Notes: a model not told the origin generated them from the letters alone. Numbered from the stretch's first letter, positions 9,169-24,380 are shown. The stretch: 32,000 nt of DNA from Acidothermus cellulolyticus 11B (GCF_000015025.1 NC_008578.1:1200001-1232000), one strand, 5' to 3'. Translations and numbers: made by a program.

Positions 9169-9211
9169 TTGACAAGCTCCAGACGCCTTCGTATCGTTCG
9201 TATACAAACGA
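9169..9211 (+). promoter_or_regulatory. Putative promoter (TTGACA-17-TATCGT) with overlapping operator-like palindrome S1 (TCGTTCGTATACAAACGA, 9194-9211)
   Basis: The -35 TTGACA is at 9169-9174 and the -10 TATCGT at 9192-9197, with a 17-nt spacer. The 18-nt palindrome (8 of 9 arm positions pair) starts inside the -10. It lies 21 nt upstream of the aldehyde dehydrogenase GTG at 9232 and is related to sites at 15514 and 17801. Confidence 0.55.
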
Positions 9212-9231
9212 CATTGAGGGAGGACCCGCGC

Positions 9232-10671
9232 GTGCGTCTGGAATTCCGCAACTTCATTGATGGCCGCGTCGTCGATCCCTCGGGGGATGAGGCTCTGCCC
9301 ATCACGGATCCGCACTCCGGTGAAATCATTGGATATTCCGCCCGCTCGAATGCGGAAGACATCGATCGAGCGTGTAGGGCCGCGGCGGAGGCCTACACCA
9401 CGTGGCGGGATACCACCCCCGCGGAACGATCTCGGGTCTTGCTGCGGATCGCTGATGACATCGAAGAGCGTGTCGAGGAGCTGGCCCGCTTGGAGAGCCG
9501 GAACACTGGTAAGCCGCTTCAGGTGCTTCGCAGCGTCGAGATACCCGCGATGGTCAACCAGATTCGGTTTGTCGCAGGAGCCGTACGAGCGCTCGTCGGA
9601 CCGACGGCCGGGGAGTATCGTCGTGGGTCGACCTCGTATCTGCGCCGTGAGCCGGTCGGTGTCGTGGCACAGATCACCCCGTGGAATTACCCCCTCATCA
9701 TGGCCGCGTGGAAGTTCGCACCCGCGATCGCGGCCGGAAATACCGTCGTGTTGAAGCCGTCCGAAACGACGCCGGTCACGACTCTGGCACTTGCCGAGCT
9801 TGCCTCGGCTCACTTGCCTCCCGGTGTCTTCAACGTCGTCTGCGGTGACGCCGCTACCGGCGCCGCACTCGCGGCACATCCCCTCCCACAGCTTGTTGCC
9901 ATCACCGGTTCCGTGGCCGCAGGCGTGGCCGTCGCCGAAACGGCGAGCCGGGATGTGAAGCGGCTGCACCTCGAACTTGGCGGCAAGGCCCCCGTCCTAG
10001 TGTTCGACGATGTCGACATTCCCAAGGCGGCGGCGGCGATCGCCGAGGCGGGGTTTTTCAACGCGGGTCAGGATTGCACCGCGGCGACGAGGGTTCTGGC
10101 CGCTCGCGACATTGCTGACGACCTGACTGCGGCATTGGCCAAAGAAGCGGCGGACATTCCGACGACCTTTGCGTACGGTGTCGAACATCCGCGCGCCTTG
10201 GTGCCCGCCCTCAACAACGTCCGGCAGTTGGAACGCGTAGCCCGGCATATCGAGACTCTGCCGCCGCATGCAGTCGTGGTTGCAGGCGGCCGCCGACAGG
10301 GCGAACGCGGTTTTCATTTCGCACCCACGGTTGTTGCACACCTTCACGAACATGACGACATCACCTGTACGGAGGTCTTCGGTCCGGTCATCACCGTCGA
10401 GACCTTCGCAACCGAAGAGGAAGCGGTCCGTCGTGCGAATGACGTGCCATACGGACTCGCATCAAGCGTGTGGACGACAGACCTGGCGCGGGCGATGAGA
10501 ATCGCGCGGAGGCTCGATTTCGGTTGCGTCTGGATCAACGAACACGGCTCACTTGTTGCCGAGATGCCTCACGGAGGCTTCAAACACTCCGGTTACGGTA
10601 AAGATCTCTCGATTTACTCGGTCGAGGAGTACACCAGGGTCAAACACATCATGGCTCGATTCGACGAATGA
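9232..10671 (+). CDS. NAD(P)-dependent aldehyde dehydrogenase, gamma-aminobutyraldehyde dehydrogenase (PatD/YdcW)-like
   Basis: The GTG at 9232 follows GAGGGAGGA (9216-9224). Motifs are ELGGKAP, FFNAGQDCTAATR (catalytic Cys), EVFGPV and a C-terminal MPHGGFKHSGYGKDLSIYSVEEYTRVKHIM. The last closely resembles E. coli PatD as I recall it. Confidence 0.85.
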   Translation: MRLEFRNFIDGRVVDPSGDEALPITDPHSGEIIGYSARSNAEDIDRACRAAAEAYTTWRDTTPAERSRVLLRIADDIEERVEELARLESRNTGKPLQVLRSVEIPAMVNQIRFVAGAVRALVGPTAGEYRRGSTSYLRREPVGVVAQITPWNYPLIMAAWKFAPAIAAGNTVVLKPSETTPVTTLALAELASAHLPPGVFNVVCGDAATGAALAAHPLPQLVAITGSVAAGVAVAETASRDVKRLHLELGGKAPVLVFDDVDIPKAAAAIAEAGFFNAGQDCTAATRVLAARDIADDLTAALAKEAADIPTTFAYGVEHPRALVPALNNVRQLERVARHIETLPPHAVVVAGGRRQGERGFHFAPTVVAHLHEHDDITCTEVFGPVITVETFATEEEAVRRANDVPYGLASSVWTTDLARAMRIARRLDFGCVWINEHGSLVAEMPHGGFKHSGYGKDLSIYSVEEYTRVKHIMARFDE

Positions 10672-12008
10672 CGGGAGATACGGTGACGTCTGACCAGACC
10701 ACGGAGTCGGCCGTTCCAGGGCCGCGCAGTGCCGAGCTGCATCGCCGGCGGGAGGCTGCGGTCGCCCGGGGCGTGAGTTCCGTTGCACCCTTCTATGTCG
10801 CCGGCGCACGCGACAGCCGGCTCGTCGATGTGGACGGGAGATCGTATATTGACCTCACGTCCGGGATTGCGGTCGCCAATGTCGGCCATGCGCCAAAGCA
10901 CGTTATCGAGGCGATTCACGCTCAGGCTGAGAGTTTTCTGCACACCTGTTTCATGGTCGCGCCATACGAGCAGTATGTGGCGGTGTGCGAACGACTGAAT
11001 GCCCTAACGCCCGGTGCATTTGCGAAGAAAAGTCTCCTGGTCAATTCAGGGGCTGAAGCGGTGGAGAACGCTGTCAAGATTGCCCGCTATGCCACAAATC
11101 GGCCGGCCGTCGTTGTCTTTGAGAATGCCTATCACGGGCGCACCAACTTGACGATGGCGATGACCGCGAAAGCGCATCCGTACAAAGACGGATTCGGCCC
11201 CTTCGCGGGTGAAATCTATCGAGCGCCGATGTCGTATCCTTTTCGCGATCCGGCAGCCATGACCGGCGAGGAGGCCGCTGCGCGCGCCATCGACGTTATC
11301 GAGCGCTACGTCGGAGCGGCACGTGTTGCATGCGTCGTCATAGAACCGATCCAGGGTGAAGGAGGATTTGTCGTTCCCGCACCCGGATTCCTACCCACAT
11401 TGCGGCAGTGGTGCAGTGAAAACGATGTCCTCTTCGTCGCTGACGAGATTCAAACCGGGTTCGGACGGACCGGGCACATGTTCGCGTGCGAGCACGAGTC
11501 CGTCGTCCCCGACATTATGATTCTCGGTAAGGCTCTGGCGGGAGGTCTGCCGCTTGCCGCGGTGACTGGCCGCGCGGATCTCGTTGATCGGGTGCATCCG
11601 GGCGGGTTGGGCGGTACGTACGGTGGAAATCCGGTCGCGTGTGCGGCGGCGCTCGCCACCCTGCACCTTCTCGAGGCAATGAATGCGCCCGCCCGCGCCC
11701 GCGGAATTGAGAAGATCATGCGGCCGCGGCTGGATGCTCTCGCAGCTCGCTATCCGTTCATTGGCGACGTTCGCGGTCGGGGTGCCATGCTTGCCCTCGA
11801 GGTGGTGCGGCCGGGCACAAAGGATCCCGATGCGGCGCGGACAGCCGATATCGTGCGTTCATCGTATGACGAAGGTCTCGCAGTCCTAAGCTGCGGTATG
11901 TACAGCAATGTACTGCGGTTTCTGCCGCCGCTGAGTATCGACGACGCGCTGCTCGTGGAAGCGATGAACCGGCTCGACCACGTCTTCGAGCGGGTAGCCG
12001 CCGCTTGA
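10668..12008 (+). CDS. Class-III PLP aminotransferase, 4-aminobutyrate aminotransferase (GabT/PuuE)-like
   Basis: The ATG overlaps the upstream stop (ATGA at 10668-10671). Motifs are SGAEAVENAVKIAR, DEIQTGFGRTG and ILGKALAGGLP (PLP lysine). Confidence 0.85.
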   Translation: MTGDTVTSDQTTESAVPGPRSAELHRRREAAVARGVSSVAPFYVAGARDSRLVDVDGRSYIDLTSGIAVANVGHAPKHVIEAIHAQAESFLHTCFMVAPYEQYVAVCERLNALTPGAFAKKSLLVNSGAEAVENAVKIARYATNRPAVVVFENAYHGRTNLTMAMTAKAHPYKDGFGPFAGEIYRAPMSYPFRDPAAMTGEEAAARAIDVIERYVGAARVACVVIEPIQGEGGFVVPAPGFLPTLRQWCSENDVLFVADEIQTGFGRTGHMFACEHESVVPDIMILGKALAGGLPLAAVTGRADLVDRVHPGGLGGTYGGNPVACAAALATLHLLEAMNAPARARGIEKIMRPRLDALAARYPFIGDVRGRGAMLALEVVRPGTKDPDAARTADIVRSSYDEGLAVLSCGMYSNVLRFLPPLSIDDALLVEAMNRLDHVFERVAAA

Positions 12009-12021
12009 GTATCGTGGTGGC

Positions 12022-12738
12022 ATGCCGACGGTCCTCTTCATCGAGCACGATCACGTTTCTCCGCCAGGCCTCCTGGGTGACGCGTTCGAGAAATGCGGCT
12101 GGGACGTCGCAGAGTTTCTCGTCGTACCGCCTGAATCATTTGACAGCCCGGCGATAGACGTCCGTTTACCGGATCCGCTGCACTATGACGCGGTCGTGCT
12201 GCTCGGTGCTCCCTGGTCGGTGTACGACGAAGCGCTGCAGGAACGGTGGGTCGGGGAGGAAATCGCGTTGGCCCGACAAGCCGACGCCGAGGGCATGCCC
12301 GTCATCGGTGTCTGTTTTGGTGGTCAGCTTCTCGCCGCCACCCATGGTGGACGGGTCGAACGCGCGGCATGCGCTGAAGTCGGCTGGACGAGGATCCATT
12401 CCCGCGTCCCGGAGTTCATTCCGGAGGGTCCGTGGCTGCAATGGCATCAGGACCGATGGCACACACCAGCGGGTGCGGCGGAGCTCGCCCATAGCCTTGT
12501 TGCGCCGCAGGCCTTCATGCTTCGGGCGAACCTCGCTGTTCAATTTCATCCCGAAGCGGATGAAACCGAGGTGGCTCTCTGGCTGGAGGCCGGAGGCGCC
12601 GATTACGTGCGCCAGCACAACCTCGACCCCGACGAACTTCTTCGGATCACTCGTCGTGAGCAGGCGCGCGCCGCTCAGTGCACCGAGAAATTGCTCAAAG
12701 GGTACTTGGAGCGTGTTCACGACCTGAACCGCCGGTGA
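12022..12738 (+). CDS. Stand-alone class-I glutamine amidotransferase-like protein (candidate gamma-glutamyl-amide hydrolase)
   Basis: The nucleophile elbow is GVCFGGQLL and the His/Glu region is AVQFHPEAD. It lies 13 nt after the aminotransferase on the same strand. Confidence 0.75.
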   Translation: MPTVLFIEHDHVSPPGLLGDAFEKCGWDVAEFLVVPPESFDSPAIDVRLPDPLHYDAVVLLGAPWSVYDEALQERWVGEEIALARQADAEGMPVIGVCFGGQLLAATHGGRVERAACAEVGWTRIHSRVPEFIPEGPWLQWHQDRWHTPAGAAELAHSLVAPQAFMLRANLAVQFHPEADETEVALWLEAGGADYVRQHNLDPDELLRITRREQARAAQCTEKLLKGYLERVHDLNRR

Positions 12739-12864: not shown

Positions 12865-14109
12865 TCACGCGAGGGTGACCCGCACCGGCATCTTCTTCAC
12901 GCCGTGGATGAAGTTGGAACGGACGTACGAGACATCACCGGCCAACTCCATGCGCTTGATTCTGGGCAGGAGCGTCTCGAACATGATCCGGATCTCCATA
13001 CGGGCAAGCTTGTTGCCGAGGCAGAAGTGTGGGCTGCCCTTCCCGAACGTCACGTGATCATTAGGATGGCGCGTCACGTCAAACCGATACGGATCCGTGA
13101 AGACCTCCTCGTCGCGGTTGCCGGACGCGAACCACATCACGACCTTATCGCCGGCGCGAATGTGCTTTCCGTGCAGCTCGACGTCACGGGTGGCGGTACG
13201 GCGGAAGTGGTACACCGGTGACGCCCAGCGAAGGAATTCCTCCACCGCTTGTGGAATGAGCTCCGGCCTGTCTTGGAGCAGGCGCATCTGGTCGGGGTTG
13301 TTGATCAGGGCGAGCATCGAGTGGCTGATCGCGTGTCGAGTCGTCTCATTGCCGGCGATGACCAAGAGTAGGAAGTAGTTGTCGAAATCACGCTGGGAAA
13401 GCGGCACGCCATCCTCGGGCATCTGGTTGACGAGCTTGCTCACCAGATCCTGTCCGCTGCGGCCGCGTCGCTGCCGGGCAAGCTCACGACCGTATTCGAA
13501 CACCTCGAGCGCCGCGGGGGAGCGGAATGGAAGATGGCGATACTTGTTGCTCTCCGGACTGTCCAGAAGAACATCCGCATAGTCCGGATCGGTGTTCCCA
13601 ATCATGCGATTGCCCCACGCGATCAGCCTTCCGGTGTGGTGTTCCGGAACATCGAGCATGCGGGCGAGAACCTGAATGGGAAAGTCCGCGCTCACCTCGG
13701 AGACGAAATCGAATTCCTTATGCCGCAGAGCCGCCTCCACGGTCGCTCTCGTCAACCCTCGAAGAAAGGACTCGTAGCCCTTGAGGGTGGTTGTTCCGAA
13801 ATCCCTGACGAGCAGACGCCGCAGTGCATGATGACGCGGTCCGTCGGTCTCGAGCATGGAGCGGCGTATCTCCATCGTCTCCTCGTCGAGTTCCTCAAGG
13901 TTGACGAACTTCTCCGAGGTGAAGGTTTCCGGGTCCCGGTCCACCGCGACGATGTCGGCGTGCCGGGTGACCGCCCAGAAGCCCTTGTTGGGCGGCGGCT
14001 CAGGATTCCAGTACACCGGTTCTTCGCGGCGGAGATAATCAAACGCAGGCCATGCGCGGTCCTGCTCGAACATGTCGAGATCGGTGAGATCGACGGTTGT
14101 TTGCTGCAC
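12865..14109 (-). CDS. Cytochrome P450 monooxygenase (resembles the actinobacterial CYP124/125/142-type group)
   Basis: The heme-thiolate loop is FGKGSPHFCLGNKLAR, the I-helix is AGNETT, and ExxR is EEFLRW. The GTG start at 14109 has GGAGGA just upstream. It lies 44 nt downstream of the GS-like gene on the same strand. Confidence 0.9.
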   Translation of the reverse strand: MQQTTVDLTDLDMFEQDRAWPAFDYLRREEPVYWNPEPPPNKGFWAVTRHADIVAVDRDPETFTSEKFVNLEELDEETMEIRRSMLETDGPRHHALRRLLVRDFGTTTLKGYESFLRGLTRATVEAALRHKEFDFVSEVSADFPIQVLARMLDVPEHHTGRLIAWGNRMIGNTDPDYADVLLDSPESNKYRHLPFRSPAALEVFEYGRELARQRRGRSGQDLVSKLVNQMPEDGVPLSQRDFDNYFLLLVIAGNETTRHAISHSMLALINNPDQMRLLQDRPELIPQAVEEFLRWASPVYHFRRTATRDVELHGKHIRAGDKVVMWFASGNRDEEVFTDPYRFDVTRHPNDHVTFGKGSPHFCLGNKLARMEIRIMFETLLPRIKRMELAGDVSYVRSNFIHGVKKMPVRVTLA

Positions 14110-14153: not shown

Positions 14154-15503
14154 TTAGAGGTGGTAGAGATATTCACCGACTTCCCAGTCGGTCACGTAAT
14201 GTGCGAAGCGTTCCAGTTCGTTCCGCTTATAGGTCACGAACGCCGAGATCAGGGGCTTCCCTAGGATCTCCGTGAGCTCGGTGTCCGCCTCCAGGGCGTC
14301 AAGGGCGGCTTCGAGATTCCGGGGCAGAAGTCGGGAGCGGGACGCATCGTAACCGTATCCCTCGGTCGGCGGCGGCGGCGTGAGTTTCTCTTCGATGCCG
14401 AGGTACGCGCCGGCCACGACACTTGCGATGGCGAGATAGGGGTTGGCCGTCGCGTCTCCGAGACGGACTTCGATGCGTGTGGCGTCTCCGCGTTCGGGGG
14501 GAATCCGTACCATCGTGCTCCGATTGTCCAGCCCCCAGTCAATCAACCAGGATGCGAGCGTGTCGGGACCGAACCGTTTGTAGGAATTGATCGTGGGGTT
14601 ATTGAACGCGGCGAGAGCCGGCGCATGCGCGAGGATGCCTGCAACGGCGTGTTCCGCCAGCGACGACAGGCCGGTGGGAGCCGCCTCATCAGCAAACAGT
14701 GACCGATCGCTCGGATCCACGATGGAGAAGTGGAGGTGGAATCCCGAGCCGCCCTCCTCGTTGAACGGCTTCGCCATGAAGGTGGCGTGTTTGCCGGCGC
14801 GGCGGGCTAACTCCTTGACGGCCGTGCGGAAGCGGAAAGCGCGGTCCGCGGCGTCCAATGCGTGCGAGTGGCCAATATTGATCTCAAATTGCCCGCTGAA
14901 GAACTCGTGATTGCCCGCGGTGGCGCGAATACCGTAGCGGGCGAGCTGCCTGAGAAATTCGAGGAGCAGGTTTTCTGGGTCGCCCTTGCGCCCGGCCACG
15001 TAGACGTTGCCCGGTGCCTCGCCGTACCGCCGCCAACCGGACGACGACGAGCCCTCCAGGAGGTAGAACTCCATTTCCGGACCGACGACCGGAACGAGAT
15101 TCTCGGCTTCGCATCGACCCACCACAGAGCGCAGCACTGAGCGCGGGCTCTCCGCGCATGGGCGGCCGTCGGGCTCGACGATGTCAGCCAGGACGTGGGC
15201 GACGCCGTCCTCCCAGGGAATCTTGCGAACCGTCGACAGATCCGGCTTGGCAAGGACGTCAGGCAATCCGGCGTCGAGACCGCCGGCGACCGGTACGACG
15301 TCCCCCCTCGGGCTGGTGTGGAAGACCCCGCGGCAGAACGCAATGCCGCCTTCACCCAGGTGGTGCGCAAGCGTTTCGACGACAAGATCCCGGCCGCGTT
15401 CCGTTCCGATGAGGTCCGCGTATCCGATCCGCAGAACGTCGATTCCCTCGCTGCGCAGCTGCTCCGTCAGGCGCTCGACGTTACGTTGATCGTCGGACTG
15501 CAT
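14154..15503 (-). CDS. Glutamine synthetase-like gamma-glutamyl-amine ligase (GlnA3/PuuA/IpuC/TdnQ-type family)
   Basis: The protein is 449 aa. The GS catalytic-domain signatures are KPFNEEGGSGFHLHFS, NSYKRF and RIEVRLGDATANPYLA. The ATG at 15503 has AGGAGG 6 nt upstream. The context is accessory, not the housekeeping glnA locus. Confidence 0.85.
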   Translation of the reverse strand: MQSDDQRNVERLTEQLRSEGIDVLRIGYADLIGTERGRDLVVETLAHHLGEGGIAFCRGVFHTSPRGDVVPVAGGLDAGLPDVLAKPDLSTVRKIPWEDGVAHVLADIVEPDGRPCAESPRSVLRSVVGRCEAENLVPVVGPEMEFYLLEGSSSSGWRRYGEAPGNVYVAGRKGDPENLLLEFLRQLARYGIRATAGNHEFFSGQFEINIGHSHALDAADRAFRFRTAVKELARRAGKHATFMAKPFNEEGGSGFHLHFSIVDPSDRSLFADEAAPTGLSSLAEHAVAGILAHAPALAAFNNPTINSYKRFGPDTLASWLIDWGLDNRSTMVRIPPERGDATRIEVRLGDATANPYLAIASVVAGAYLGIEEKLTPPPPTEGYGYDASRSRLLPRNLEAALDALEADTELTEILGKPLISAFVTYKRNELERFAHYVTDWEVGEYLYHL

Positions 15504-15675: not shown

Positions 15676-16503
15676 ATGCGGGGATTCTTTTACCCACGGA
15701 CGCCGACCGGGCAGGCGTCGATTATTCCTGCGCCGCCTTGGTATTACTCCGGGGACATGTTGACCGTTGAGTACCGGACCGATCCCGCTTTGGTGGCGGC
15801 CCTGCTGCCGCCTCCGCTGGAACCCGCTCCGGAGGATCCGGGCGCGGTCGCGATTATCTGGGCTGACTGGCAATCGTGCTCCGAAGGCGGCGCTGAGCTG
15901 CTTGATCCGGTCCGGGCACAGTACAAGGAAACGCTCGTCGTCGTCCGCTGCACGTATCGCGGTGAGATCTTTTCCCGCTGCGTCTTTATCTGGGTCGACA
16001 AGGACTTTGCCCTCGTCCGGGGGCTGCATCAGGGCTATCCGAAGAAGCTGGGCTCGATCTGGATGACACGGCCCCATCCCTACGGACGGGCCGCCCCCCG
16101 ACTCGAAGCGGGTGCCACGATAGCGGCCACGCTCGCTGCGGCGGACCGTCGGCTGGCACAAGCAGTCGTGACATTGCGCGATGTTGTCGAGGCACCCGGC
16201 TTCGTGAACAGCCATCCGATGGCACACCACCGCGTTGTCCCCGGGATAGCCAAAGGCGCGCCGGACGCCCTGAACGAGCTCATCCGATCCGCTGCCGCCG
16301 CGGTCACGGGCGGGCCCGTCTGGCGAGGTGACGCGTCCTTGGAGCTCTTTGAGTCGCCGACGGAGGAGCTTGCCGCACTCCGTGTCGATGAGATCATAGG
16401 TGGCTACTATCGGCAGGTGGGAGTCGTATGGGACGGCGGTGAGGTCCTCGCGCCGCACGGTTCGGGTGGCGGTGTACAGCCTCCCGAGGCGCGCGAATCA
16501 TAG
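15676..16503 (+). CDS. Acetoacetate decarboxylase (ADC)-family protein
   Basis: MRGFFYPRTPTG...YRTDPALVAALLPPPLEP aligns with the N-terminus of clostridial Adc as I recall it. The Schiff-base lysine context YPKKLG is conserved (HQGYPKKLGS). I preferred the ATG at 15676 (AGGGTAGG 7 nt upstream); the ATG at 15643 is an alternative. Confidence 0.8.
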   Translation: MRGFFYPRTPTGQASIIPAPPWYYSGDMLTVEYRTDPALVAALLPPPLEPAPEDPGAVAIIWADWQSCSEGGAELLDPVRAQYKETLVVVRCTYRGEIFSRCVFIWVDKDFALVRGLHQGYPKKLGSIWMTRPHPYGRAAPRLEAGATIAATLAAADRRLAQAVVTLRDVVEAPGFVNSHPMAHHRVVPGIAKGAPDALNELIRSAAAAVTGGPVWRGDASLELFESPTEELAALRVDEIIGGYYRQVGVVWDGGEVLAPHGSGGGVQPPEARES

Positions 16504-16551: not shown

Positions 16552-17067
16552 ATGACGGGTTATCACACCTTGGCGGAAACCGAGAAGGCCATGGCCACTC
16601 ACCTCAAAGGATTGCCGATCGACATGGCCGCCGCTGAAGCCGTCTCAAACCTTTACCGGGCGGCTAATATCGCCCGCAACCATCTCACGCAGACGGTCCT
16701 GAAAGATGTCGATCTCACCTGGACCGCATTTGTCGTCCTCTGGGTGACCTGGATGTGGGACGGCATTGAGAGCCGGCACGCTGCGGAGGAAGCCGCCATC
16801 TCCAAGGCGACCTTGACCGGCGTGGTCCAGACGTTGGAGCGTCGGGGTCTCCTTGCTCGATTCGGCGATTCCGATGATCGACGTCTGGTGCGTCTCCGGC
16901 TTACCAACGAAGGCCGGAGCCTGATGCAGAAGCTCTATCCGGTTTTCAACGCGGAGGAACAATTCATCGTATCGACATTGAGTCCGCGCGTGCGCTCCAC
17001 CATGACCCGAGGGCTGCGTGCTATCGTCGCCCATCTTGAGTCGCAAAGCGACACGCGGCGTCCATAA
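16552..17067 (+). CDS. MarR-family transcriptional regulator
   Basis: The winged-HTH region is AAEEAAISKATLTGVVQTLERRGLLARFGDSDDRRLVRLRLTNEG. The ATG at 16552 sits 9 nt after AAGGAGG (16536-16542); the ORF-track ATG at 16543 abuts the RBS. It lies 48 nt downstream of the ADC-family gene. Confidence 0.85.
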   Translation: MTGYHTLAETEKAMATHLKGLPIDMAAAEAVSNLYRAANIARNHLTQTVLKDVDLTWTAFVVLWVTWMWDGIESRHAAEEAAISKATLTGVVQTLERRGLLARFGDSDDRRLVRLRLTNEGRSLMQKLYPVFNAEEQFIVSTLSPRVRSTMTRGLRAIVAHLESQSDTRRP

Positions 17068-17752
17068 ACGCTTTGAAAATTGCCATCTGTGCTTGATCGC
17101 TCGGCGTCCCGTCTTCCGGATGCCATTGGATGCCGAGGCACCAACCCGCTTCACCGGACAGTTCGAACGCTTCCGGCGTGCCGTCCACGGCCCAGGCCAC
17201 TGGGCGAAGTCCGCGGCCCGGTCGAGCGACACACTGGTGATGAAAGCAGGACACCCACATGCTCGGCCGAGTGACGATCTGACCAAGGCGGCTGGCCGGC
17301 TCGACCGTCACGTCATGTTTACGATGACGGTGCGCCTCTTCCGCCATATCAACGACAAGGGAGCCTCCTAGGGCGACGGTCAAAACGTGAAGGCCGCGGC
17401 AGATTCCCAAGAGTGGAACCCCTCGGGCGACGCAGTGGCGTGCGCAGGCGAGATCCACCGCGTCTTGTTCGACGTCGACGTCGTACAGCGTCGGATGCTC
17501 CGCCTCGCCGTACCACTGGGGGTGCAGATCGCCGCCGCCGGGGAGCAGGACGGCGTCCGCCTCCCGGAGCCGATCCGCCAGCTCCGTTTCATCGATCGTG
17601 CCGTTGGGAGCCCAGGGCAAGAAGGACAACGGCTCGCCACCCGCCAGGTAGACGGCTTCGGCAAGGGCGCGCGCGGTGGCCAGTGCGGCAAAGCGAAGCG
17701 CAGAGGCGCGCGCCGAGAAGCGGGCCGGTATGAAGACCCGTGGACGTTGCAT
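17021..17752 (-). CDS. Gamma-glutamyl-gamma-aminobutyrate hydrolase (PuuD)-like peptidase C26 / class-I amidotransferase
   Basis: The nucleophile is GICRGLH, with CFHHQ and GIQWHPE. The C-terminal AIFKAFMDAAC resembles the E. coli PuuD tail. The 3' end overlaps the MarR 3' end by 47 nt. Confidence 0.85.
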   Translation of the reverse strand: MQRPRVFIPARFSARASALRFAALATARALAEAVYLAGGEPLSFLPWAPNGTIDETELADRLREADAVLLPGGGDLHPQWYGEAEHPTLYDVDVEQDAVDLACARHCVARGVPLLGICRGLHVLTVALGGSLVVDMAEEAHRHRKHDVTVEPASRLGQIVTRPSMWVSCFHHQCVARPGRGLRPVAWAVDGTPEAFELSGEAGWCLGIQWHPEDGTPSDQAQMAIFKAFMDAACRFATQDGRR

Positions 17753-17859: not shown

Positions 17860-19341
17860 ATGCCGCGTACGACGTCCGTCAGCGGAATTGAGGTTTCCGT
17901 TGACCACTGGGTGGGCGGCGAACGCCTCGCGTCGGATGCGACGTTCCCTGACATTTCACCGCTTGATCAGCAGGTTCTCGCCAATGTCGCCCGCGGCGGA
18001 CCGCGGGAAGTGAGCGCCGCGGTCGACGCCGCTTCGGCGGCGTTTCCGCAATGGGCGGCGACACCGCGCACCGAGCGGGCCGCCCTCCTGCACGCCGTAG
18101 CGGAAGGCATCGAGAAGCGTGTCGACGATCTCGCACTCGTCGAAACGTTGGACAACGGGGGGTTGCTCCGGTCCCATCGTCGGAGTGTGATTCCCCGCGC
18201 CGCGTATAACTTTCATTTCTTTGCGGATTTTCTCTTGCAGCTCGGTCATGAGGATTTCGAGACACGAGGACATAGAAACCACATTTCGTGGCAACCGGCA
18301 GGAGTCACGGCGGTCATCACGCCGTGGAATGCACCGTTGATGCTCGCCACCTGGCGGGTCGCACCCGCCCTAGCCGCCGGCAATACCGTCGTGCTCAAGC
18401 CCCCGGAGTGGGCGCCGTTGACGGCATCACTCCTCGCCGACATTACCGCTGAAGCCGGGCTGCCGCCAGGCGTCTTTAACGTCGTGCAGGGTATTGGGGA
18501 GGAGGCCGGTGCCGCACTGGTGCGCGATCCCCGGGTACGCCGTATCGCCTTCACCGGCTCGGTTGCGACCGCGCGCGCCATCGGTCACGCGGCAGCGGAG
18601 AACGTCATCCCCGTCTCCTTCGAGCTGGGAGGCAAGAATCCGTTCATTGTCTTTCCCGACGCCGACCTGGACCTCGCTGTACGACACGCGGTGGATCAGT
18701 ACGACAACGCCGGCCAGGTCTGTCTCGCCGGCACGCGATTGTACGTCGCCGACGCCGTCTACGACGAATTCCTTGAGCGGTTTCTCCAGGCGGCTGCGGC
18801 GTGGCGGGTAGGGGACCCGCGCAGCGAAGACGTCGACATGGGCCCGCAGATTCATCCCGACCATCTTGCGCGCATTGACGGATACGTCCGCCGCGCGAAA
18901 GCCGCCGGGGCGACGGTCCTACTCGGCGGCGGCCCGCATCCGGAGCTGGGCGGTCTGTACTACCAACCCACCTTATTGACGAATGTTGCCGATGACAGTG
19001 AGATCAACCGCGAAGAAGTCTTCGGTCCTGTCATTGTCCTGCATCGATTTACGGACGAAGACGAAGTCATCCGGCGTGCGAACGACAATATCTATGGGCT
19101 CGCGGCGATGGTCTTTACCGGCGACCGGTCACGGGCGGAGCGCGTCGCGGACCGGCTGGTCGCCGGCACCGTCTGGGTGAACTGCTTCTACGTCCGCGAC
19201 TTGCGGGCGCCGTTCGGCGGCGCGCGGTTGTCCGGTATCGGCCGGGAAGGCGGCACCTGGTCGTTCGACTTCTACGCGGAGGTCAAGAACACGGTGACCG
19301 CCCCGAGCGGCTGGTTGATAAAGGAGGCGAATGGTGGGTGA
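17860..19341 (+). CDS. Ring-fission semialdehyde dehydrogenase (5-carboxymethyl-2-hydroxymuconate / 2-hydroxy- or 2-aminomuconate semialdehyde dehydrogenase, HpaE-like)
   Basis: The ATG at 17860 follows GGGAGGG. The sequence is collinear with E. coli HpaE as I recall it: HWVGGE, IPRAAYNFHFFADF, FELGGKNP, NAGQVCLAGTR and VRDLRAPFGGARLSGIGREGG. Confidence 0.85.
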   Translation: MPRTTSVSGIEVSVDHWVGGERLASDATFPDISPLDQQVLANVARGGPREVSAAVDAASAAFPQWAATPRTERAALLHAVAEGIEKRVDDLALVETLDNGGLLRSHRRSVIPRAAYNFHFFADFLLQLGHEDFETRGHRNHISWQPAGVTAVITPWNAPLMLATWRVAPALAAGNTVVLKPPEWAPLTASLLADITAEAGLPPGVFNVVQGIGEEAGAALVRDPRVRRIAFTGSVATARAIGHAAAENVIPVSFELGGKNPFIVFPDADLDLAVRHAVDQYDNAGQVCLAGTRLYVADAVYDEFLERFLQAAAAWRVGDPRSEDVDMGPQIHPDHLARIDGYVRRAKAAGATVLLGGGPHPELGGLYYQPTLLTNVADDSEINREEVFGPVIVLHRFTDEDEVIRRANDNIYGLAAMVFTGDRSRAERVADRLVAGTVWVNCFYVRDLRAPFGGARLSGIGREGGTWSFDFYAEVKNTVTAPSGWLIKEANGG

Positions 19342-20245
19342 AGTCGTCGGTGCGGGACTGCTGTCCCATGTGCCAACGATCATGTTGCCGGAGTCCACGC
19401 GGCGTGAGTTGTACGAAGGCAAAGACACCACGCTCGTCGACGGACTGCGTCGGCTTCGTACTGAAGTCTTTGAAACGCTCGACTATGACACGGTCGTCGT
19501 CCTTGACTCGCACTGGGCGACCACCGTCGAGTTCGTTGTGACGGCACACCCGCTCCGGGCCGGCCTCTTTACCTCAGAAGAGCTGCCGCGCGGCATGCGT
19601 CGCATCCCTTACGACTTCATGGGCGATCCTGATCTCGCACATGCCATCGCCGCAGCCGCGGAGAGACACGGCACCTGGATCACGGCAATCGACGATCCAT
19701 ATTTGCCAATCTTTTACGCCACGGTCAATCTCTGGAAGTATCTGGGGGAGGGACTCGATCGGAGGTGGATCTCCCTCAGTGTCTGCCAAACCGCAGATAT
19801 GGAAGACTTTCTGCGCGCCGGTCGAGCCCTTGGCGAGGCAATCATCAACTCTGATCGCCGTGTCATACTCATCGCATCCGGCGCGCTGAGCCATACCTTC
19901 TGGCCGCTCCGCGAATTGCGGAAGCATGAAGCCGCGGGTGTTGAACACATCTTCAGCAGGGAAGCCGCCGATGCCGACAACGAGCGGCTTGCCTGGTTCC
20001 AGAAGGGTGATCACGCTCAGGTGCTCCGGACGATGGGGGAGTTCTACCGTTTCAAGCCGGAGGCGAAATTTGGTCACTACCTTCTGATGATGGGCGCACT
20101 CGGCGAGGAGGCCTGCACGGCACCCGGGCGGTTATTCAGTGCATATGAAAATTCGATCGGCACGGGACAAGTCCACGTGTGGTTCGATCGTCCAGAAGGA
20201 GGCTTTCCCGCTCCGCGCGCGACAGACACTCGTGGCGATGACTGA
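19331..20245 (+). CDS. Class III (LigB-type) extradiol ring-cleavage dioxygenase, HpaD/HpcB-like
   Basis: Motifs are LSHVPTIM, VVLDSHW, IASGALSHTFW and IGTGQVHVWF, as in homoprotocatechuate 2,3-dioxygenase (HpcB) and the related AmnB/LigB enzymes. The start (ATG 19331 or GTG 19334) overlaps the upstream stop, and AAGGAGG is at 19321-19327. Confidence 0.85.
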   Translation: MVGEVVGAGLLSHVPTIMLPESTRRELYEGKDTTLVDGLRRLRTEVFETLDYDTVVVLDSHWATTVEFVVTAHPLRAGLFTSEELPRGMRRIPYDFMGDPDLAHAIAAAAERHGTWITAIDDPYLPIFYATVNLWKYLGEGLDRRWISLSVCQTADMEDFLRAGRALGEAIINSDRRVILIASGALSHTFWPLRELRKHEAAGVEHIFSREAADADNERLAWFQKGDHAQVLRTMGEFYRFKPEAKFGHYLLMMGALGEEACTAPGRLFSAYENSIGTGQVHVWFDRPEGGFPAPRATDTRGDD

Positions 20246-21110
20246 GGTCGAGCGCGTTACCGAGTACCGCCGGATACTCCTCGACGGCGCGGAAACCCGC
20301 GTCGAGCGGCACGGTGACCTATTGATCGCACCAGACGGCCGACGTGTTCCGGTCGAGAAAGCGGTTCATCTCCCTCCCGTTCAGCCAACAAAGATTATCG
20401 CGGTACACCTCAATTACCGCAGCCGCGTCGAGGAGTTTCACGCGCGGCTTCCGCCGGCTCCCACCTACTTTCACAAGCCGACGACGGCGCTCAACGCTCA
20501 CGGAGGCGCCGTCGTGCGGCCGCAACGATGCCGTTGGCTCAACTTCGAAGGTGAATTCGCTGTGGTGATCGGTAGGCCATGCCGCAACATCCGGCCGGAT
20601 GACGCGATGGACTACGTCGCCGGATTCACCATAGCGAACGATTTCGGGCTGCACGACTTCCGGGACACGGATGCAGGGTCCATGCTTCGCGTCAAGGGCT
20701 CCGATACGCTCTGCCCTCTGGGCCCGGGACTCGTCGTCGGCTGGCAACCGCAGGGCAAGCGCCTGCGTACCTATGTCAACGATCGCGTCGCTCAGGATGC
20801 GTCAACAGACGAGATGGAGTGGAGCCCCGCGTATCTCATCGCCGACATCGCCCGCACCATCACCCTGCTGCCCGGTGACGTGATTCTCACCGGTACACCC
20901 GCGGGCTCGCGTCCGGTCGAACCAGGTGACGTTGTCACGGTGGAGGTCGAAGGCCTCGGCCGCCTGGTCAACTACGTTGTCGAAGGACCAATACCGGTGC
21001 GTGATGACGTCGGCGCGCAGCCGTCGTCATCAGAAGAAGTGGTCTCCACCGCCCTCGGCGGCGATTGGGAGTTCCGAGGCATTCGGCCTCCCCGCCGTGC
21101 GGTGGAGTGA
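20238..21110 (+). CDS. Fumarylacetoacetate hydrolase (FAH)-family enzyme (HpaG/HpcE-type decarboxylase/isomerase or hydratase, single domain)
   Basis: The ATG at 20238 (or GTG at 20232) overlaps the dioxygenase stop (ATGACTGA). FAH-fold motifs are KIIAVHLNYRSR, NFEGEFAVVIG and GDVILTGTPAG. Confidence 0.8.
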   Translation: MTEVERVTEYRRILLDGAETRVERHGDLLIAPDGRRVPVEKAVHLPPVQPTKIIAVHLNYRSRVEEFHARLPPAPTYFHKPTTALNAHGGAVVRPQRCRWLNFEGEFAVVIGRPCRNIRPDDAMDYVAGFTIANDFGLHDFRDTDAGSMLRVKGSDTLCPLGPGLVVGWQPQGKRLRTYVNDRVAQDASTDEMEWSPAYLIADIARTITLLPGDVILTGTPAGSRPVEPGDVVTVEVEGLGRLVNYVVEGPIPVRDDVGAQPSSSEEVVSTALGGDWEFRGIRPPRRAVE

Positions 21111-21149
21111 CCCGGTGTATCAACCACTGCCACAGGAAAACGGGAGTCA

Positions 21150-21371
21150 ATGATCATGCGGATTGTCGTTGATCTGACGAAATGCCAGGATCACGGACAG
21201 TGTGTCTTCTCATGCCCGGAAGTGTTCTCGCTGGACGAGAACGGGAAGCTGTCTTTTCGAAAGTACGCGCAAGAGCTCTACCGATCGGAGCTCATTTCAG
21301 AGGAGCTGCGCGACAAGGTCGAAGAGGCGGCCGACGTCTGCCCCACCCAGGCAATTCTTATTGAGGAGTAA
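21150..21371 (+). CDS. Small ferredoxin, [3Fe-4S]-type P450 redox partner
   Basis: The protein is 73 aa. The cluster motif is C-QDH-GQ-C ... C-P (CxxHxxC...CP), as in actinobacterial P450-associated ferredoxins. The start is ATG 21150 or 21156. Confidence 0.85.
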   Translation: MIMRIVVDLTKCQDHGQCVFSCPEVFSLDENGKLSFRKYAQELYRSELISEELRDKVEEAADVCPTQAILIEE

Positions 21372-21374
21372 AAG

Positions 21375-22619
21375 GTGCAACGCGTCGTCGTGGTCGGCGC
21401 GTCGGTAGCGGGACTTCGAGCGGTTGAATCGCTGCGCAGGAACGGATTCGCCGGCGAAATCCTCGTTATCGGCGGTGAGCGCTGGCCGCCGTACAACCGC
21501 CCGCCGCTCTCCAAGACCGTTCTCACGGCTACCGAATTGCCGGGCTTCGATGAGATCGCGCTTCCTCTTTCGCCACGGATCGGTGACGTCCAATGGCGGT
21601 TGGGTGTCCGTGCGGCGGCGTTGGACGTGGACGCACGCGTCGTCGTCCTCGAGGACGGCCAAACGGTCGAGTGGGACGGTCTCGTTATCGCGACCGGACT
21701 GCGACCGGTGCGGTTGGCTGTCCCCGGGCCGACGGTGAGGCGGTACGTGCTTCGCAATTTTGATGACGCGCGGGCACTCCGAGACGTGCTGCAGCCCGGT
21801 GCCCGGCTTGTCGTGATCGGTGCGGGGTTCATTGGTTGCGAGGTCGCCTCCGCCGCGAGGGAACGCGGGGTCCACGTGGTCGTTGTCGGACGCTCGGAAT
21901 ACCCTCTTCCCGGGCTGGGCGACATTCTGGGAAGCGAACTGCGGAGACTTCACGAGACACATGGCGTCCGCTTCCTCGGAGCACGAGCGGTCGTTGCTTT
22001 CGAGGGAACCGACCATGTACGCGGTGTAGTCCTCGACGACGGCACCGAACTGGCCGCCGACATCGTCGTTGAAGCAATCGGCGGCGCCCCGGAGACGGAT
22101 TGGCTCGTAACCACCAAGCTCGACATCCACAACGGCGTGCGGTGTGACGGAATGTTACGAGCACTCGACATTTCGGGACAGCCCATACCCAACGTCGTGG
22201 CATGCGGTGATGTCGCACGAGTGCCCCTGCTGCGCGGGGCGGGAATTGAAGGCCGAGTGGAGCACTGGTCAATGGCCATTGAGACGGGACGGTACGCCGG
22301 CCGCACCCTCGCTGCATCCTTGTCCGGTGCGGCGGCAGGTGCGCCGTCTGTGCCGATGGTGCCGACGTTCTGGTCAGACCAATATGGCGTTCGGCTCTCC
22401 GGCGTGGGTCTGCCTGAGATGCATGACGGCGAGATCCGGGTACGGCATGACAGCGCGGCCGGCGAAGTCGCGATCTCGTACTTCCGGGCCGGACGGTTGA
22501 TCGGCATCGCTGCACTCGGCTGTGCCGCACGACTCCCGGAGTTTTACGACGCGGTCCGGCGCTCCTGGCAGGATGAGGGCCACCCGGTCTCGACCGTGAC
22601 TCGGTCGTCGCCGCGCTAA
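21375..22619 (+). CDS. FAD-dependent ferredoxin-NAD(P)+ reductase (pyridine nucleotide-disulfide oxidoreductase family)
   Basis: The GTG at 21375 lies 3 nt after the ferredoxin stop, with GAGGAG upstream. The FAD fold is VVVVGASVAGLRA, the NAD fold is LVVIGAGFIGCEVA, and ACGDVA is also present. Confidence 0.88.
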   Translation: MQRVVVVGASVAGLRAVESLRRNGFAGEILVIGGERWPPYNRPPLSKTVLTATELPGFDEIALPLSPRIGDVQWRLGVRAAALDVDARVVVLEDGQTVEWDGLVIATGLRPVRLAVPGPTVRRYVLRNFDDARALRDVLQPGARLVVIGAGFIGCEVASAARERGVHVVVVGRSEYPLPGLGDILGSELRRLHETHGVRFLGARAVVAFEGTDHVRGVVLDDGTELAADIVVEAIGGAPETDWLVTTKLDIHNGVRCDGMLRALDISGQPIPNVVACGDVARVPLLRGAGIEGRVEHWSMAIETGRYAGRTLAASLSGAAAGAPSVPMVPTFWSDQYGVRLSGVGLPEMHDGEIRVRHDSAAGEVAISYFRAGRLIGIAALGCAARLPEFYDAVRRSWQDEGHPVSTVTRSSPR

Positions 22620-22829: not shown

Positions 22830-24380
22830 ATGGTAAGCGCTTCCGGAGAGCGCGGCGCAATGCTGGCGGCGGTTGAGGCAAGAGCCCCGTCGCGACACCT
22901 GTGGCGAGATCGGATTGCGGTCATCGGCATTGTTTTTTATGTGGTTGCGGCATCCGCGCCGCTGGTTGGCATGTCCGGTGCGGTTCCCGTGGCCATCGGC
23001 CTGGGGAATGGTTCCGGGACGCCCGGCGCTTACCTCGCGGTCGGTATCGCGCTCCTCATCTTCAGCGTGGGTTACGCCGCCATGAGCAGCAAAGTCACCA
23101 ATGCCGGGGCATTCTTCGCCTATGTAGGCCGTGGACTCGGCGTACGGGCCGGAATTTCTTCCGCCTTTGTGTCTATCTTCGCGTACGTCACGATCCAACT
23201 CGCGATTTATGGCTTCATGGGCGGGCTGGTCGCGCAGGAAGCCAAGCAATATCTCGGCATCTCCCTTCCCTGGTGGGGATGGGTCTTTATCGCCTGGGGC
23301 CTTGTGCTTCTCCTTTCCCTCTTCAGCGTGGATGTCGGCGCTAAAGTTCTTGGCGGCTTTATGATTCTTGAGCTGAGCTCGCTCCTCATCATGGCTTTCG
23401 CTGTCATCTTCCGCGGCGGCGGCCCGCAAGGACTCAGTGTGTCGGCGTCGTTCGCGCCAAGCCATGTCTTCGTCGGCGGCCTCGCCGGATCGGCTGGAAT
23501 CGCGTTGGCGTTCGCGTTCGCCTCCTATATTGGCTTTGAGGCGACGGCGATTTACGGCGAGGAGTCACGGGATCCGAAGCGTACGGTTCCGGTGGCTACC
23601 TACGCGGCTGTGGGAACGATTGCCCTGCTCTTCGCCGTTACGTCGTGGGGAATTGTGAGCGGCTTAGGGCAAGGCCGCGTCGTCGACGAGACGCTGAAGA
23701 TTTCTACGGTTGGTGATACACCGCTGGCGGATCCCGCACAAGTCATCTTCCACGTCGCCACGCAGTACGTTGGATCGTGGCTCGCGGATCTCATGCGCAT
23801 TCTCGTGATCTCCAGCCTTTTCGCCGGCCTGCTCGCGTTCCAGAACGCCAATGCGCGGTATTTCTACGCGCTGGGGCGTGCCGGCGTCCTGCCGAAGGCT
23901 CTGAGTCACGTCTCACGGCGCGGATCCCCGATGTACGGAACGCTGACGATGTCCGGGCTCACTGCCCTCGTGGTGCTCATCTTCATGGCGAAGGGCTGGG
24001 ACCCGGTGCTCAACCTCTTCTATTGGTCCAGTGCCATTGCCGTCATGGCGATCGTCATAGTGGAAATTCTGGTCTCCGTTGCGGTGATTGCCTTCTTCCG
24101 GCGTGATCATTCCGATACCCGGCTCTGGAACACCGTGGTCGCGCCGATCCTGGCCATTGCCGCCCTCGGTATCGGTCTCTACCTCCTCATGGCCCGGTTC
24201 GGGCTTCTCGCCGGTACCGCAGCAGCCGGGGTCGATCCCACGAAGACGGCGTGGGCGCTGTCACCAACGGGATGGGTGCTCATTGCGCTGCCGTTCGTCA
24301 TGCTCATCGTGGGTCTTGTCGTAGCGCTTGCCCGACGGCGGAGCATCGACAGCCAGGTCGTTGCCGATCTGGTGAGCTGA
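22830..24380 (+). CDS. APC-superfamily amino acid/amine permease
   Basis: The protein is 516 aa with about 12 hydrophobic segments and Gly/Ala-rich TM helices typical of APC transporters. The ATG follows GAGGAGG (22819-22825). Confidence 0.8.

Follow-up and report, generated by a model that had tools for sequence, protein, structure and literature searches.

A Puu-like operon without PuuB in a gamma-glutamyl amine island of Acidothermus cellulolyticus 11B: a possible lower end for arylethylamine degradation

Gamma-glutamylation of amines is known for putrescine, isopropylamine and anilines. Here, the systems concerned are compared with an island of 14 genes in a 32,000-nucleotide stretch of the Acidothermus cellulolyticus 11B genome (NC_008578.1:1200001-1232000; the window), in particular with the three genes at 9232-12738, which encode an aldehyde dehydrogenase (ALDH1), a 4-aminobutyrate (GABA) transaminase (GabT) and a stand-alone amidotransferase-fold hydrolase (GAT2). 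In the Puu pathway of E. coli, the amine is handled as a gamma-glutamyl amide, and oxidation of its second amino group by PuuB gives gamma-glutamyl-4-aminobutanal, which is taken through gamma-glutamyl-GABA and GABA to succinate semialdehyde by an aldehyde dehydrogenase, a C26 hydrolase and a GabT-type aminotransferase. The Ipu systems of Pseudomonas sp. KIE171 and Paenarthrobacter aurescens TC1 (pTC1/pTC2) act on a small aliphatic amine by means of a glutamine synthetase (GS)-like ligase, a three-component cytochrome P450 (P450) working on the gamma-glutamyl amide, amidotransferase-fold hydrolases, an aldehyde dehydrogenase and a permease. The Hpa/Hpc meta-cleavage route runs through extradiol cleavage, semialdehyde oxidation, decarboxylation/isomerization, hydration and aldol cleavage to pyruvate and a C4 aldehyde; for the textbook substrate, homoprotocatechuate, the aromatic ring together with its -CH2COOH substituent is converted into pyruvate and succinate semialdehyde. 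In the aniline dioxygenase systems (AtdA1-A5, TdnQTA1A2B, NpaA1-A5 and the skt type of Rhodococcus), the aromatic amine is gamma-glutamylated before ring oxidation, and a Rieske two-component dioxygenase then removes the nitrogen and gives catechol. The glutamine-amidotransferase (GAT)-like partner in aniline and naphthylamine oxidation hydrolyses the glutamylated amine back to the amine, reversing the ligation, and is dispensable for conversion (PMC11335346). MsGATase of Mycolicibacterium smegmatis is likewise a stand-alone enzyme of the class I glutamine-amidotransferase (GATase) fold, with glutaminase activity (PMC12958103).

The island shares the logic of the Puu, Ipu and aniline dioxygenase systems and is a member of none of them; we class it as a variant of gamma-glutamyl-dependent amine catabolism. 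With Ipu it has in common a single locus that joins ligase, P450, ferredoxin, reductase and amidotransferase-fold hydrolase, along with an aldehyde dehydrogenase and a permease, whereas Ipu is without the ring-cleavage genes and the enzyme of the acetoacetate decarboxylase (ADC) fold found here. No Rieske oxygenase is present in the island; its oxygenase is a P450, and, unlike in aniline oxidation, the nitrogen would be kept on the side chain through ring fission. From Puu it differs in being without PuuB, in having a ligase outside the PuuA clade and an aldehyde dehydrogenase and hydrolase far under the PuuC and PuuD cut-offs, and in that ring fission, and not oxidation of a second amino group, is the proposed source of the aldehyde. 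Judged from its gene content, the island may be a catabolic route for an arylethylamine of the tyramine or dopamine type in which the Puu-like genes form the lower end, a reading that we hold with confidence somewhat short of even.

A preliminary description of this DNA had listed homologues of four Puu enzymes, and all four, as well as GAT2, are intact with strong family matches; the four have identities to the E. coli K-12 proteins of 30.7% (PuuA), 37.6% (PuuC; ALDH1), 29.8% (PuuD; the C26 hydrolase) and 43.1% (PuuE; GabT). The absence of a PuuB-type oxidase that it reported also holds, in the window and in 10 kb on either side. Its concern that such an oxidase might lie just outside is answered by the flanks, which carry housekeeping genes only (gltBD, pyk and liv upstream; uvrC, rapZ, gap and pgk-tpi downstream); a weak FAD-fold match that lies 7 kb upstream of the window comes from the glutamate synthase small subunit. 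A tblastn search of the 2.44-Mb genome with E. coli PuuB gave a single match, at 31% identity, at 1,427,311-1,428,462, which is 195 kb from the window and surrounded by polyamine-type ABC transporter genes, another aldehyde dehydrogenase and another class III aminotransferase. This PuuB-like gene, a member of the DAO family in a cluster at 1427141-1436217, has an open frame with about 270 extra N-terminal residues that are without a Pfam match. In all, the genome has four full-length DAO-family genes, each more than 100 kb from the window, two full-length matches to the flavin amine-oxidase family, at 1.54 and 1.90 Mb, and no copper amine oxidase.

In a sample of 400 genomes of the class, 24 have an orthologue of the island P450 (62-72% identity). 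Among 17 genomes of the organism's own family none has one, a tally that takes in one genome flagged as unpublished, which contributes a negative only. Within 10 kb on either side of these 24 orthologues, searches with the island proteins found the GS-like ligase in 23 loci, the ADC-fold gene in 21, the HpaE-like gene in 18, the LigB gene in 17 and the FAH gene in 16; MarR and GAT2 occur in 17 loci each, C26 in 13 and both hydrolases together in 12. ALDH1 and GabT were found in none of the 24. When the remaining open reading frames of 25 loci were clustered after masking of the known genes, a VanA-type Rieske oxygenase with its reductase appeared in about 10, an F420-type LLM oxidoreductase in 9 and a group II pyridoxal phosphate (PLP)-dependent decarboxylase in 3, and no recurrent aminotransferase or amine oxidase was seen. 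The decarboxylase could not be assigned as a tyrosine decarboxylase; its best model is diaminobutyrate decarboxylase, far below the cut-off. The conserved core is thus the ligase, the P450, the ring-cleavage set, the ADC-fold enzyme, a regulator and one or two hydrolases. Since this core contains ring-cleavage genes and no recurrent aminotransferase or amine oxidase, it can cleave the ring and cannot first remove the amine. For this reason, and because O-demethylase-type oxygenases are frequent and an amino-acid decarboxylase occasional, ring fission is suggested to take place on a tagged arylethylamine. A mobilizable linear plasmid of Streptomyces canus (L100, record 48666-62234) has an orthologous cluster beside a transposase and integrases, and the NCBI pipeline gives the LigB gene of this cluster the name 3,4-dihydroxyphenylacetate 2,3-dioxygenase.

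The preliminary description had offered the P450 as the source of the missing oxidation. Its orthologues are linked instead to the extradiol set, and because of this linkage the P450 more likely makes the catechol than replaces amine oxidation by PuuB. In the island, the ring-cleavage operon ends with the ferredoxin and reductase genes. Among solved structures, the P450 matches best the reconstructed ancestral CYP125MRCA (413 bits), far ahead of any natural CYP125 or CYP124 (about 250-268 bits). At five of the related loci (L069, L074, L080, L083 and L089), a paralogous second P450 (50-53% identity) is encoded a few kb away from the orthologue; the two may carry out successive hydroxylations, for example starting from phenylethylamine.

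In the ligase tree, a clade (support 99) holds the island ligase with 22 of 23 cluster-linked ligases and lies outside PuuA. The partner of E. coli PuuA in the tree (97) is another GS-like gene of this genome, at 2.09 Mb, and not the island ligase, which is also apart from the Rhodococcus aniline-type ligase. Against the PuuA model NF045547 the island ligase scores 274 bits, the cut-off being 650, so that it does not qualify as a PuuA orthologue; its closest named relative is IpuC of pTC1, at 37%. The GS-like gene at 2.09 Mb belongs to a second and more Puu-like cluster (2090164-2096819) of an APC permease, a GntR regulator, the GS-like ligase, an aldehyde dehydrogenase, a short-chain dehydrogenase and a C26 hydrolase, adjoining genes for a glycine-cleavage T protein and a serine dehydratase. 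The cluster has the look of a pathway that uses an amino alcohol, for instance ethanolamine, by way of gamma-glutamylation, the short-chain dehydrogenase replacing the oxidase.

The GTG start of ALDH1 at 9232 is backed by a ribosome-binding site, GAGGGAGG, and by a promoter-like site upstream, and the same gene call is found in a metagenome contig that is 96-100% identical. A near-palindrome, TCGTTCGTATACAAACGA, at 9190-9215 of the window overlaps the -10 element ahead of ALDH1 and is a candidate MarR operator. The GabT start overlaps the ALDH1 stop by 4 nucleotides and GAT2 begins 13 nucleotides after GabT, so that the three genes form one tight operon. ALDH1 passes the cut-off of NF010000, the aminobutyraldehyde dehydrogenase subfamily (648.8 bits; cut-off 615), and falls below that of the PuuC equivalog NF007352 (338.6 bits; cut-off 850); in profile comparison it fails the succinate semialdehyde dehydrogenase models and lies far below the cut-offs of the phenylacetaldehyde dehydrogenase models. 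GabT scores as a GABA transaminase with both the TIGR00700 equivalog (561.6 bits; cut-off 506.65) and NF004714 (678 bits; cut-off 639), and genome-wide no other gene exceeds the TIGR00700 cut-off. Because ALDH1 and GabT recur in none of the 24 related loci, they are an add-on specific to this island and not a conserved part of the pathway. The idea of a Puu pathway short of one step is thus not borne out, the ligase in addition standing outside the PuuA clade.

The ring-cleavage genes have the homoprotocatechuate enzymes as their best-matching families, each below its equivalog cut-off, with 135 of 316 bits for HpaD, 529 of 638 for HpaE and 206.9 of 276 for HpaG (TIGR02303, matched by the FAH enzyme). 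The best PDB match of the LigB protein is 3,4-dihydroxyphenylacetate 2,3-dioxygenase (8iq8; E 6.6e-23), followed by aminophenol dioxygenases (1.7e-13). The ADC-fold protein matches MppR (6e-50), Sbi00515 (8e-46) and Swit_4259 (4e-31), true ADC giving only 6e-6; by these matches, it belongs with the pyruvate aldolase-dehydratases of the MppR/Sbi00515 type and not with the true decarboxylases, although at 204.7 of 380 bits it is below the MppR equivalog. MppR, Sbi00515 and Swit_4259 act on pyruvate-type 2-oxo acids through a Schiff base, and the chemistry is of the aldol and dehydration kind. In the genome, which is 99.4% complete, HpaF, HpaH and HpaI are absent, no HpcH/HpaI aldolase (PF03328) or CHMI isomerase (PF02962) was found, and there are two FAH-family genes only. 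With no HpaI aldolase, no CHMI and a single other FAH gene, the ADC-fold enzyme is the sole candidate for the last hydration and cleavage, in place of the separate hydratase and aldolase of the Hpa/Hpc route.

The pathway that we propose would begin with import of the amine by the APC permease, followed by ATP-dependent coupling of the amine to the gamma-carboxyl of glutamate by the GS-like ligase. The P450, with its ferredoxin and reductase, would then hydroxylate the ring to a catechol, which the LigB-type dioxygenase would open while the amine is still glutamylated. The HpaE-like dehydrogenase would oxidize the fission product and the HpaG-like FAH enzyme would decarboxylate what results, after which the MppR/Sbi00515-type enzyme would hydrate and aldol-cleave it to pyruvate and gamma-glutamyl-4-aminobutanal. 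This last compound is derived as follows: if the -CH2COOH of the textbook substrate is swapped for -CH2CH2NH-Glu, the C4 product of an Hpa-type sequence would be gamma-glutamyl-4-aminobutanal and not succinate semialdehyde. This is the very compound that PuuB produces in E. coli, and with the aldehyde coming from aldol cleavage of the ring-fission product, no amine oxidase would be needed. ALDH1 would oxidize the aldehyde, the C26 hydrolase would free GABA and glutamate, and GabT would convert GABA to succinate semialdehyde. In a side step, GAT2 would turn the gamma-glutamyl-arylalkylamide back to the amine, as AtdA2 and NpaA2 do, and so control the level of the tagged intermediate. There may also be a chemical reason for the tag. 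A free amine condenses or cyclizes onto a ring-fission aldehyde, as in the conversion of DOPA to betalamic acid; the glutamyl group would keep the side-chain amine from doing so.

Two types of hydrolase are a conserved feature and not an accident of this island, since both are present in 12 of the 24 related loci. The Cys-His-Glu triad is intact in GAT2 (GVCFGGQ and FHPE) and in C26 (GICRGLH and WHPE), and is conserved in nearly all homologues of each. The nearest solved relative of GAT2 is MsGATase (PDB 7D54; E 9.8e-59, nearly full length). C26 matches SpuA (3e-22) and PuuD (4e-17) in the PDB and scores 70.7 bits against the PuuD model NF008471, for which the cut-off is 266. In their trees, the cluster-linked copies of GAT2 fall together (SH-aLRT 86), an unlinked copy from Blastococcus being nested among them, and the cluster copies of C26 make up a single clade (91) to which neither PuuD nor the second C26 gene of the genome belongs. 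Their neighbours also differ. Of the 17 loci with GAT2, 11 have it divergent from the ligase and 11 have it in the same direction as MarR. Of the 13 with C26, 6 show the arrangement seen in the island, in which this gene diverges from the HpaE-like one and converges on MarR. In an independent sample anchored on close GAT2 homologues, a GS-like gene lies within 8 kb in 5 of 6 long contigs, so that GAT2 goes with the ligase; the case that the preliminary description had named as counting against it, GAT2 as part of an unrelated biosynthetic amidotransferase, is not borne out. In the tblastn alignments, GAT2 of L092 and C26 of L085 and L089 show stops within the frame or a scrambled region at the active site, and these copies may be pseudogenes or assembly errors.

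The resemblance of GAT2 to the hydrolase partners of aniline and isopropylamine degradation, also proposed earlier, finds support. A homologue (35%) adjoins the GS-like gene of an aniline-dioxygenase-type cluster in Rhodococcus gordoniae, the one homologue through which the comparison with the aniline systems was made, and the pTC1 isopropylamine cluster has one GAT2-type gene (30%) and one C26-type gene (37%). The Rhodococcus cluster offers no evidence of the two hydrolase types together, its "PuuD-family" fragment being nearer to GAT2 than to C26. In Angustibacter luteus (L105:3701-11039), the source of one of the GAT2-anchored contigs with a GS-like gene, the order is aldehyde dehydrogenase, C26, GAT2, ligase and FAH in one operon, with the hydrolase genes overlapping by 4 nucleotides and with a glyoxalase-fold protein and an HpcH/HpaI aldolase where the island has LigB and the ADC-fold enzyme. 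The GAT2 family is not always tied to the pathway, because members in one genus of the organism's own family, at 46-50% identity, are without any island gene within 10 kb. A search of genome contigs with GAT2 alone gave distant relatives only (at most 41% identity), three of them paired with C26 and without the ligase. In these three Actinomycetes metagenome-assembled genomes (L004, L006 and L007, at about 9200-10700), homologues of GAT2 (37-41%) and C26 (36-41%) adjoin each other in divergent orientation, and neither a GS-like ligase nor a P450 is encoded nearby; the L004 pair, the only one annotated, sits among genes for an ABC transporter and a Cys/Met PLP enzyme. The pairing may have a use beyond this pathway.

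From their differing neighbours, their separate lineages and the aniline precedent, GAT2 is most likely the early, ligase-opposing hydrolase, converting the gamma-glutamyl-arylalkylamide to the amine, and C26 would be the late, product-releasing one. The earlier suggestion that the two act on different intermediates thus fits their conserved surroundings. The assignment of each hydrolase to a substrate is the least certain part of the model. Taken as a single proposition, the ring would be opened while the amine is capped with glutamate, and a catecholamine would yield pyruvate and gamma-glutamyl-4-aminobutanal, which would enter a Puu-type tail without an amine oxidase. The ADC-fold enzyme would replace the Hpa hydratase and aldolase, and the hydrolases would split the work, the MsGATase-type enzyme, usually co-transcribed with MarR, opposing the ligase and setting the level of the tagged inducer, and the PuuD-type enzyme freeing the final amino acid. 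We regard this combination as possible rather than probable.

The island measures about 15.5 kb and lies between coaE and uvrB of a conserved backbone, in which the order within the window is livGF, polA, rpsA, coaE, the island, uvrB, a GNAT gene and uvrA. The genome, a single contig of 62-69% G+C from an actinobacterial class, has relatives in which the gap from coaE to uvrB is about 80 bp, namely a sister species (L095:6098-8859) and another genus of the family (L096:9320-12111). The site is empty in the sister species, and the island fills it cleanly. With this empty site, and with P450 orthologues in 24 sampled genomes of the class and in none of the 17 of the own family, the island is foreign and horizontally acquired, and the Puu-like operon came along with it. 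Its genes run as ALDH1, GabT and GAT2 on the plus strand, P450 and ligase on the minus strand, the ADC-fold gene and MarR on the plus strand and C26 on the minus strand, followed at 17860-22619 by one plus-strand run from the HpaE-like gene to the ferredoxin reductase and then by the permease (Table 1).

Several points weigh against the arylethylamine proposal. Every enzyme step in it is drawn from homology and gene order, and the HpaE, HpaD and HpaG matches are all under their equivalog cut-offs. The nearest solved relatives of the P450 are of the CYP125/CYP124 type, steroid and lipid hydroxylases that say nothing on an aromatic substrate. Several related clusters, including L070, L072, L073 and L076 and also the S. 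canus plasmid, have neither hydrolase within 10 kb. The place of GAT2 in the ALDH1-GabT operon would fit equally with GAT2 as a gamma-glutamyl-GABA hydrolase. ALDH1 appears nearer to the enzyme for free aminobutanal (PatD type) than to PuuC, so that hydrolysis may precede or follow oxidation. Finally, with neither ALDH1 nor GabT in any of the 24 related loci, the Puu-like tail is outside what is conserved of the pathway and might be a GABA module with no relation to it.

This last possibility, in which ALDH1 and GabT, with or without GAT2, are a generic aminobutanal/GABA module metabolically separate from the ligase, P450 and ring-cleavage set, also draws on a same-family genome where GabT and an adjoining ALDH1-type gene (59-62% identity) stand on their own. 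We consider it quite unlikely, as the whole 15.5 kb, operon included, fills the coaE-uvrB site, the third gene of the operon is GAT2, a regular member of the conserved set, and the island holds the only orthodox GabT of the genome. Alternatively, the tag might only escort the amine through the P450 step, after which a hydrolase would free dopamine, the class III aminotransferase and ALDH1 would lead to homoprotocatechuate, and an Hpa-type route would end in pyruvate and succinate semialdehyde. The ring-cleavage enzymes are indeed nearest to those for homoprotocatechuate, an aminotransferase and an aldehyde dehydrogenase are present, and in the Ipu pathway, too, release follows P450 hydroxylation (PMC6776027). 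However, no aminotransferase or amine oxidase recurs in the related loci, the island has an orthodox GabT and an aminobutyraldehyde-type ALDH1 that is remote from phenylacetaldehyde dehydrogenases, and GABA would have no place in such a scheme, which we therefore rate as unlikely.

The version in the preliminary description, an aliphatic or cyclic amine handled as in Ipu or in pyrrolidine/piperidine degradation, would have the P450 hydroxylate a gamma-glutamyl alkylamide beside the nitrogen or at the terminal carbon to give the PuuB aldehyde, leaving the ring-cleavage genes for another substrate. Ipu is published as just such a combination of GS-like ligase, P450, ferredoxin, reductase and hydrolase, pTC1 has the same pair of hydrolase types, its reductase is 33% identical to that of the island, and a gamma-glutamyl-pyrrolidide would yield exactly a Puu-like tail. 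Yet the P450 and ligase orthologues are accompanied by LigB, HpaE, FAH and ADC-like genes in most loci, the redox partners of the P450 end the ring-cleavage operon, and the P450 is only 29% identical to that of pTC1, so that this version is improbable; a pyrrolidine/piperidine route of the PipA/MorA type, which we considered first, was set aside on the same linkage to ring cleavage. The least probable of the alternatives, and to us a very doubtful one, takes the substrate to be an arylamine related to aniline or the aminophenols, with the P450 giving gamma-glutamyl-2-aminophenol and LigB acting as an aminophenol 1,6-dioxygenase. It can call on the second-best solved relatives of LigB, which are aminophenol dioxygenase beta subunits, and on the GAT-like gene of the Rhodococcus aniline-dioxygenase-type cluster as a member of the GAT2 family. 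The match of LigB to homoprotocatechuate dioxygenase is nevertheless about 10 orders of magnitude better in E-value, neither a second (alpha) dioxygenase subunit nor an aminomuconate deaminase was seen, the FAH enzyme matches HpaG and not the 4-oxalocrotonate decarboxylase models, and GabT and ALDH1 would be left without a role.

Table 1. Features of the island, with positions counted from the first nucleotide of the window.
Feature	Position	Strand	Basis or remark
Promoter-like site TTGACA-17-TATCGT	9169..9197	+	Consensus match only; ahead of ALDH1-GabT-GAT2 operon
ALDH1, aminobutyraldehyde-dehydrogenase-type aldehyde dehydrogenase (PuuC/PatD-like)	9232..10671	+	Pfam Aldedh E 6.7e-149
GabT, 4-aminobutyrate transaminase (class III aminotransferase)	10668..12008	+	TIGR00700 561.6 bits
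GAT2, stand-alone class I glutamine-amidotransferase-fold hydrolase, MsGATase type	12022..12738	+	PF00117 E 9.8e-13
Cytochrome P450, proposed ring hydroxylase on gamma-glutamyl amide	12865..14109	-	PF00067
GS-like glutamate-amine ligase	14154..15503	-	Gln-synt_C E 1.4e-97
ADC-superfamily enzyme, MppR/Sbi00515 type, proposed hydratase-aldolase	15676..16503	+	PF06314 E 4.6e-63
MarR-family regulator	16552..17067	+	PF01047
C26/PuuD-type gamma-glutamyl hydrolase (Peptidase C26)	17021..17752	-	PF07722 E 6.9e-44
HpaE-like semialdehyde dehydrogenase	17860..19341	+	TIGR02299 529 bits, below 638 cut-off
LigB-type extradiol dioxygenase, HpaD-like	19331..20245	+	PF02900
FAH-family enzyme, HpaG-like decarboxylase/isomerase	20238..21110	+	PF01557 E 3.6e-56
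Single-cluster ferredoxin, assigned to P450	21156..21371	+	PF13459 E 2e-15
Ferredoxin reductase	21375..22619	+	PF07992 and Reductase_C
APC-family permease, probable amine importer	22830..24380	+	PF00324 and PF13520

The present analysis adds to the earlier account the genome-wide exclusion of PuuB, the island-specific nature of ALDH1 and GabT, the derivation of the tail from ring fission, and the counts, trees and neighbour patterns of the two hydrolases. A literature search found no paper on a gamma-glutamyl, P450 and meta-cleavage route for arylethylamines, and nothing relevant on the catabolism of gamma-glutamyl-tyramine or gamma-glutamyl-dopamine or on GS-like enzymes acting on tyramine. 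If the proposal is correct, the glutamate tag would gain a further use, that of guarding a side-chain amine through aromatic ring fission, and actinobacteria would have an oxidase-free route from arylethylamines of plant or microbial origin, such as tyramine, dopamine and methoxytyramines, to pyruvate, GABA and glutamate. Three groups would then acquire a physiological role: the stand-alone "GMP-synthase-like" amidotransferases, which are a large family, a branch of the acetoacetate decarboxylase superfamily, and a P450 family carried by about 6% of the class genomes in the sample. For A. cellulolyticus itself, the island also supplies the only orthodox GABA transaminase of a reduced genome of 2.4 Mb.

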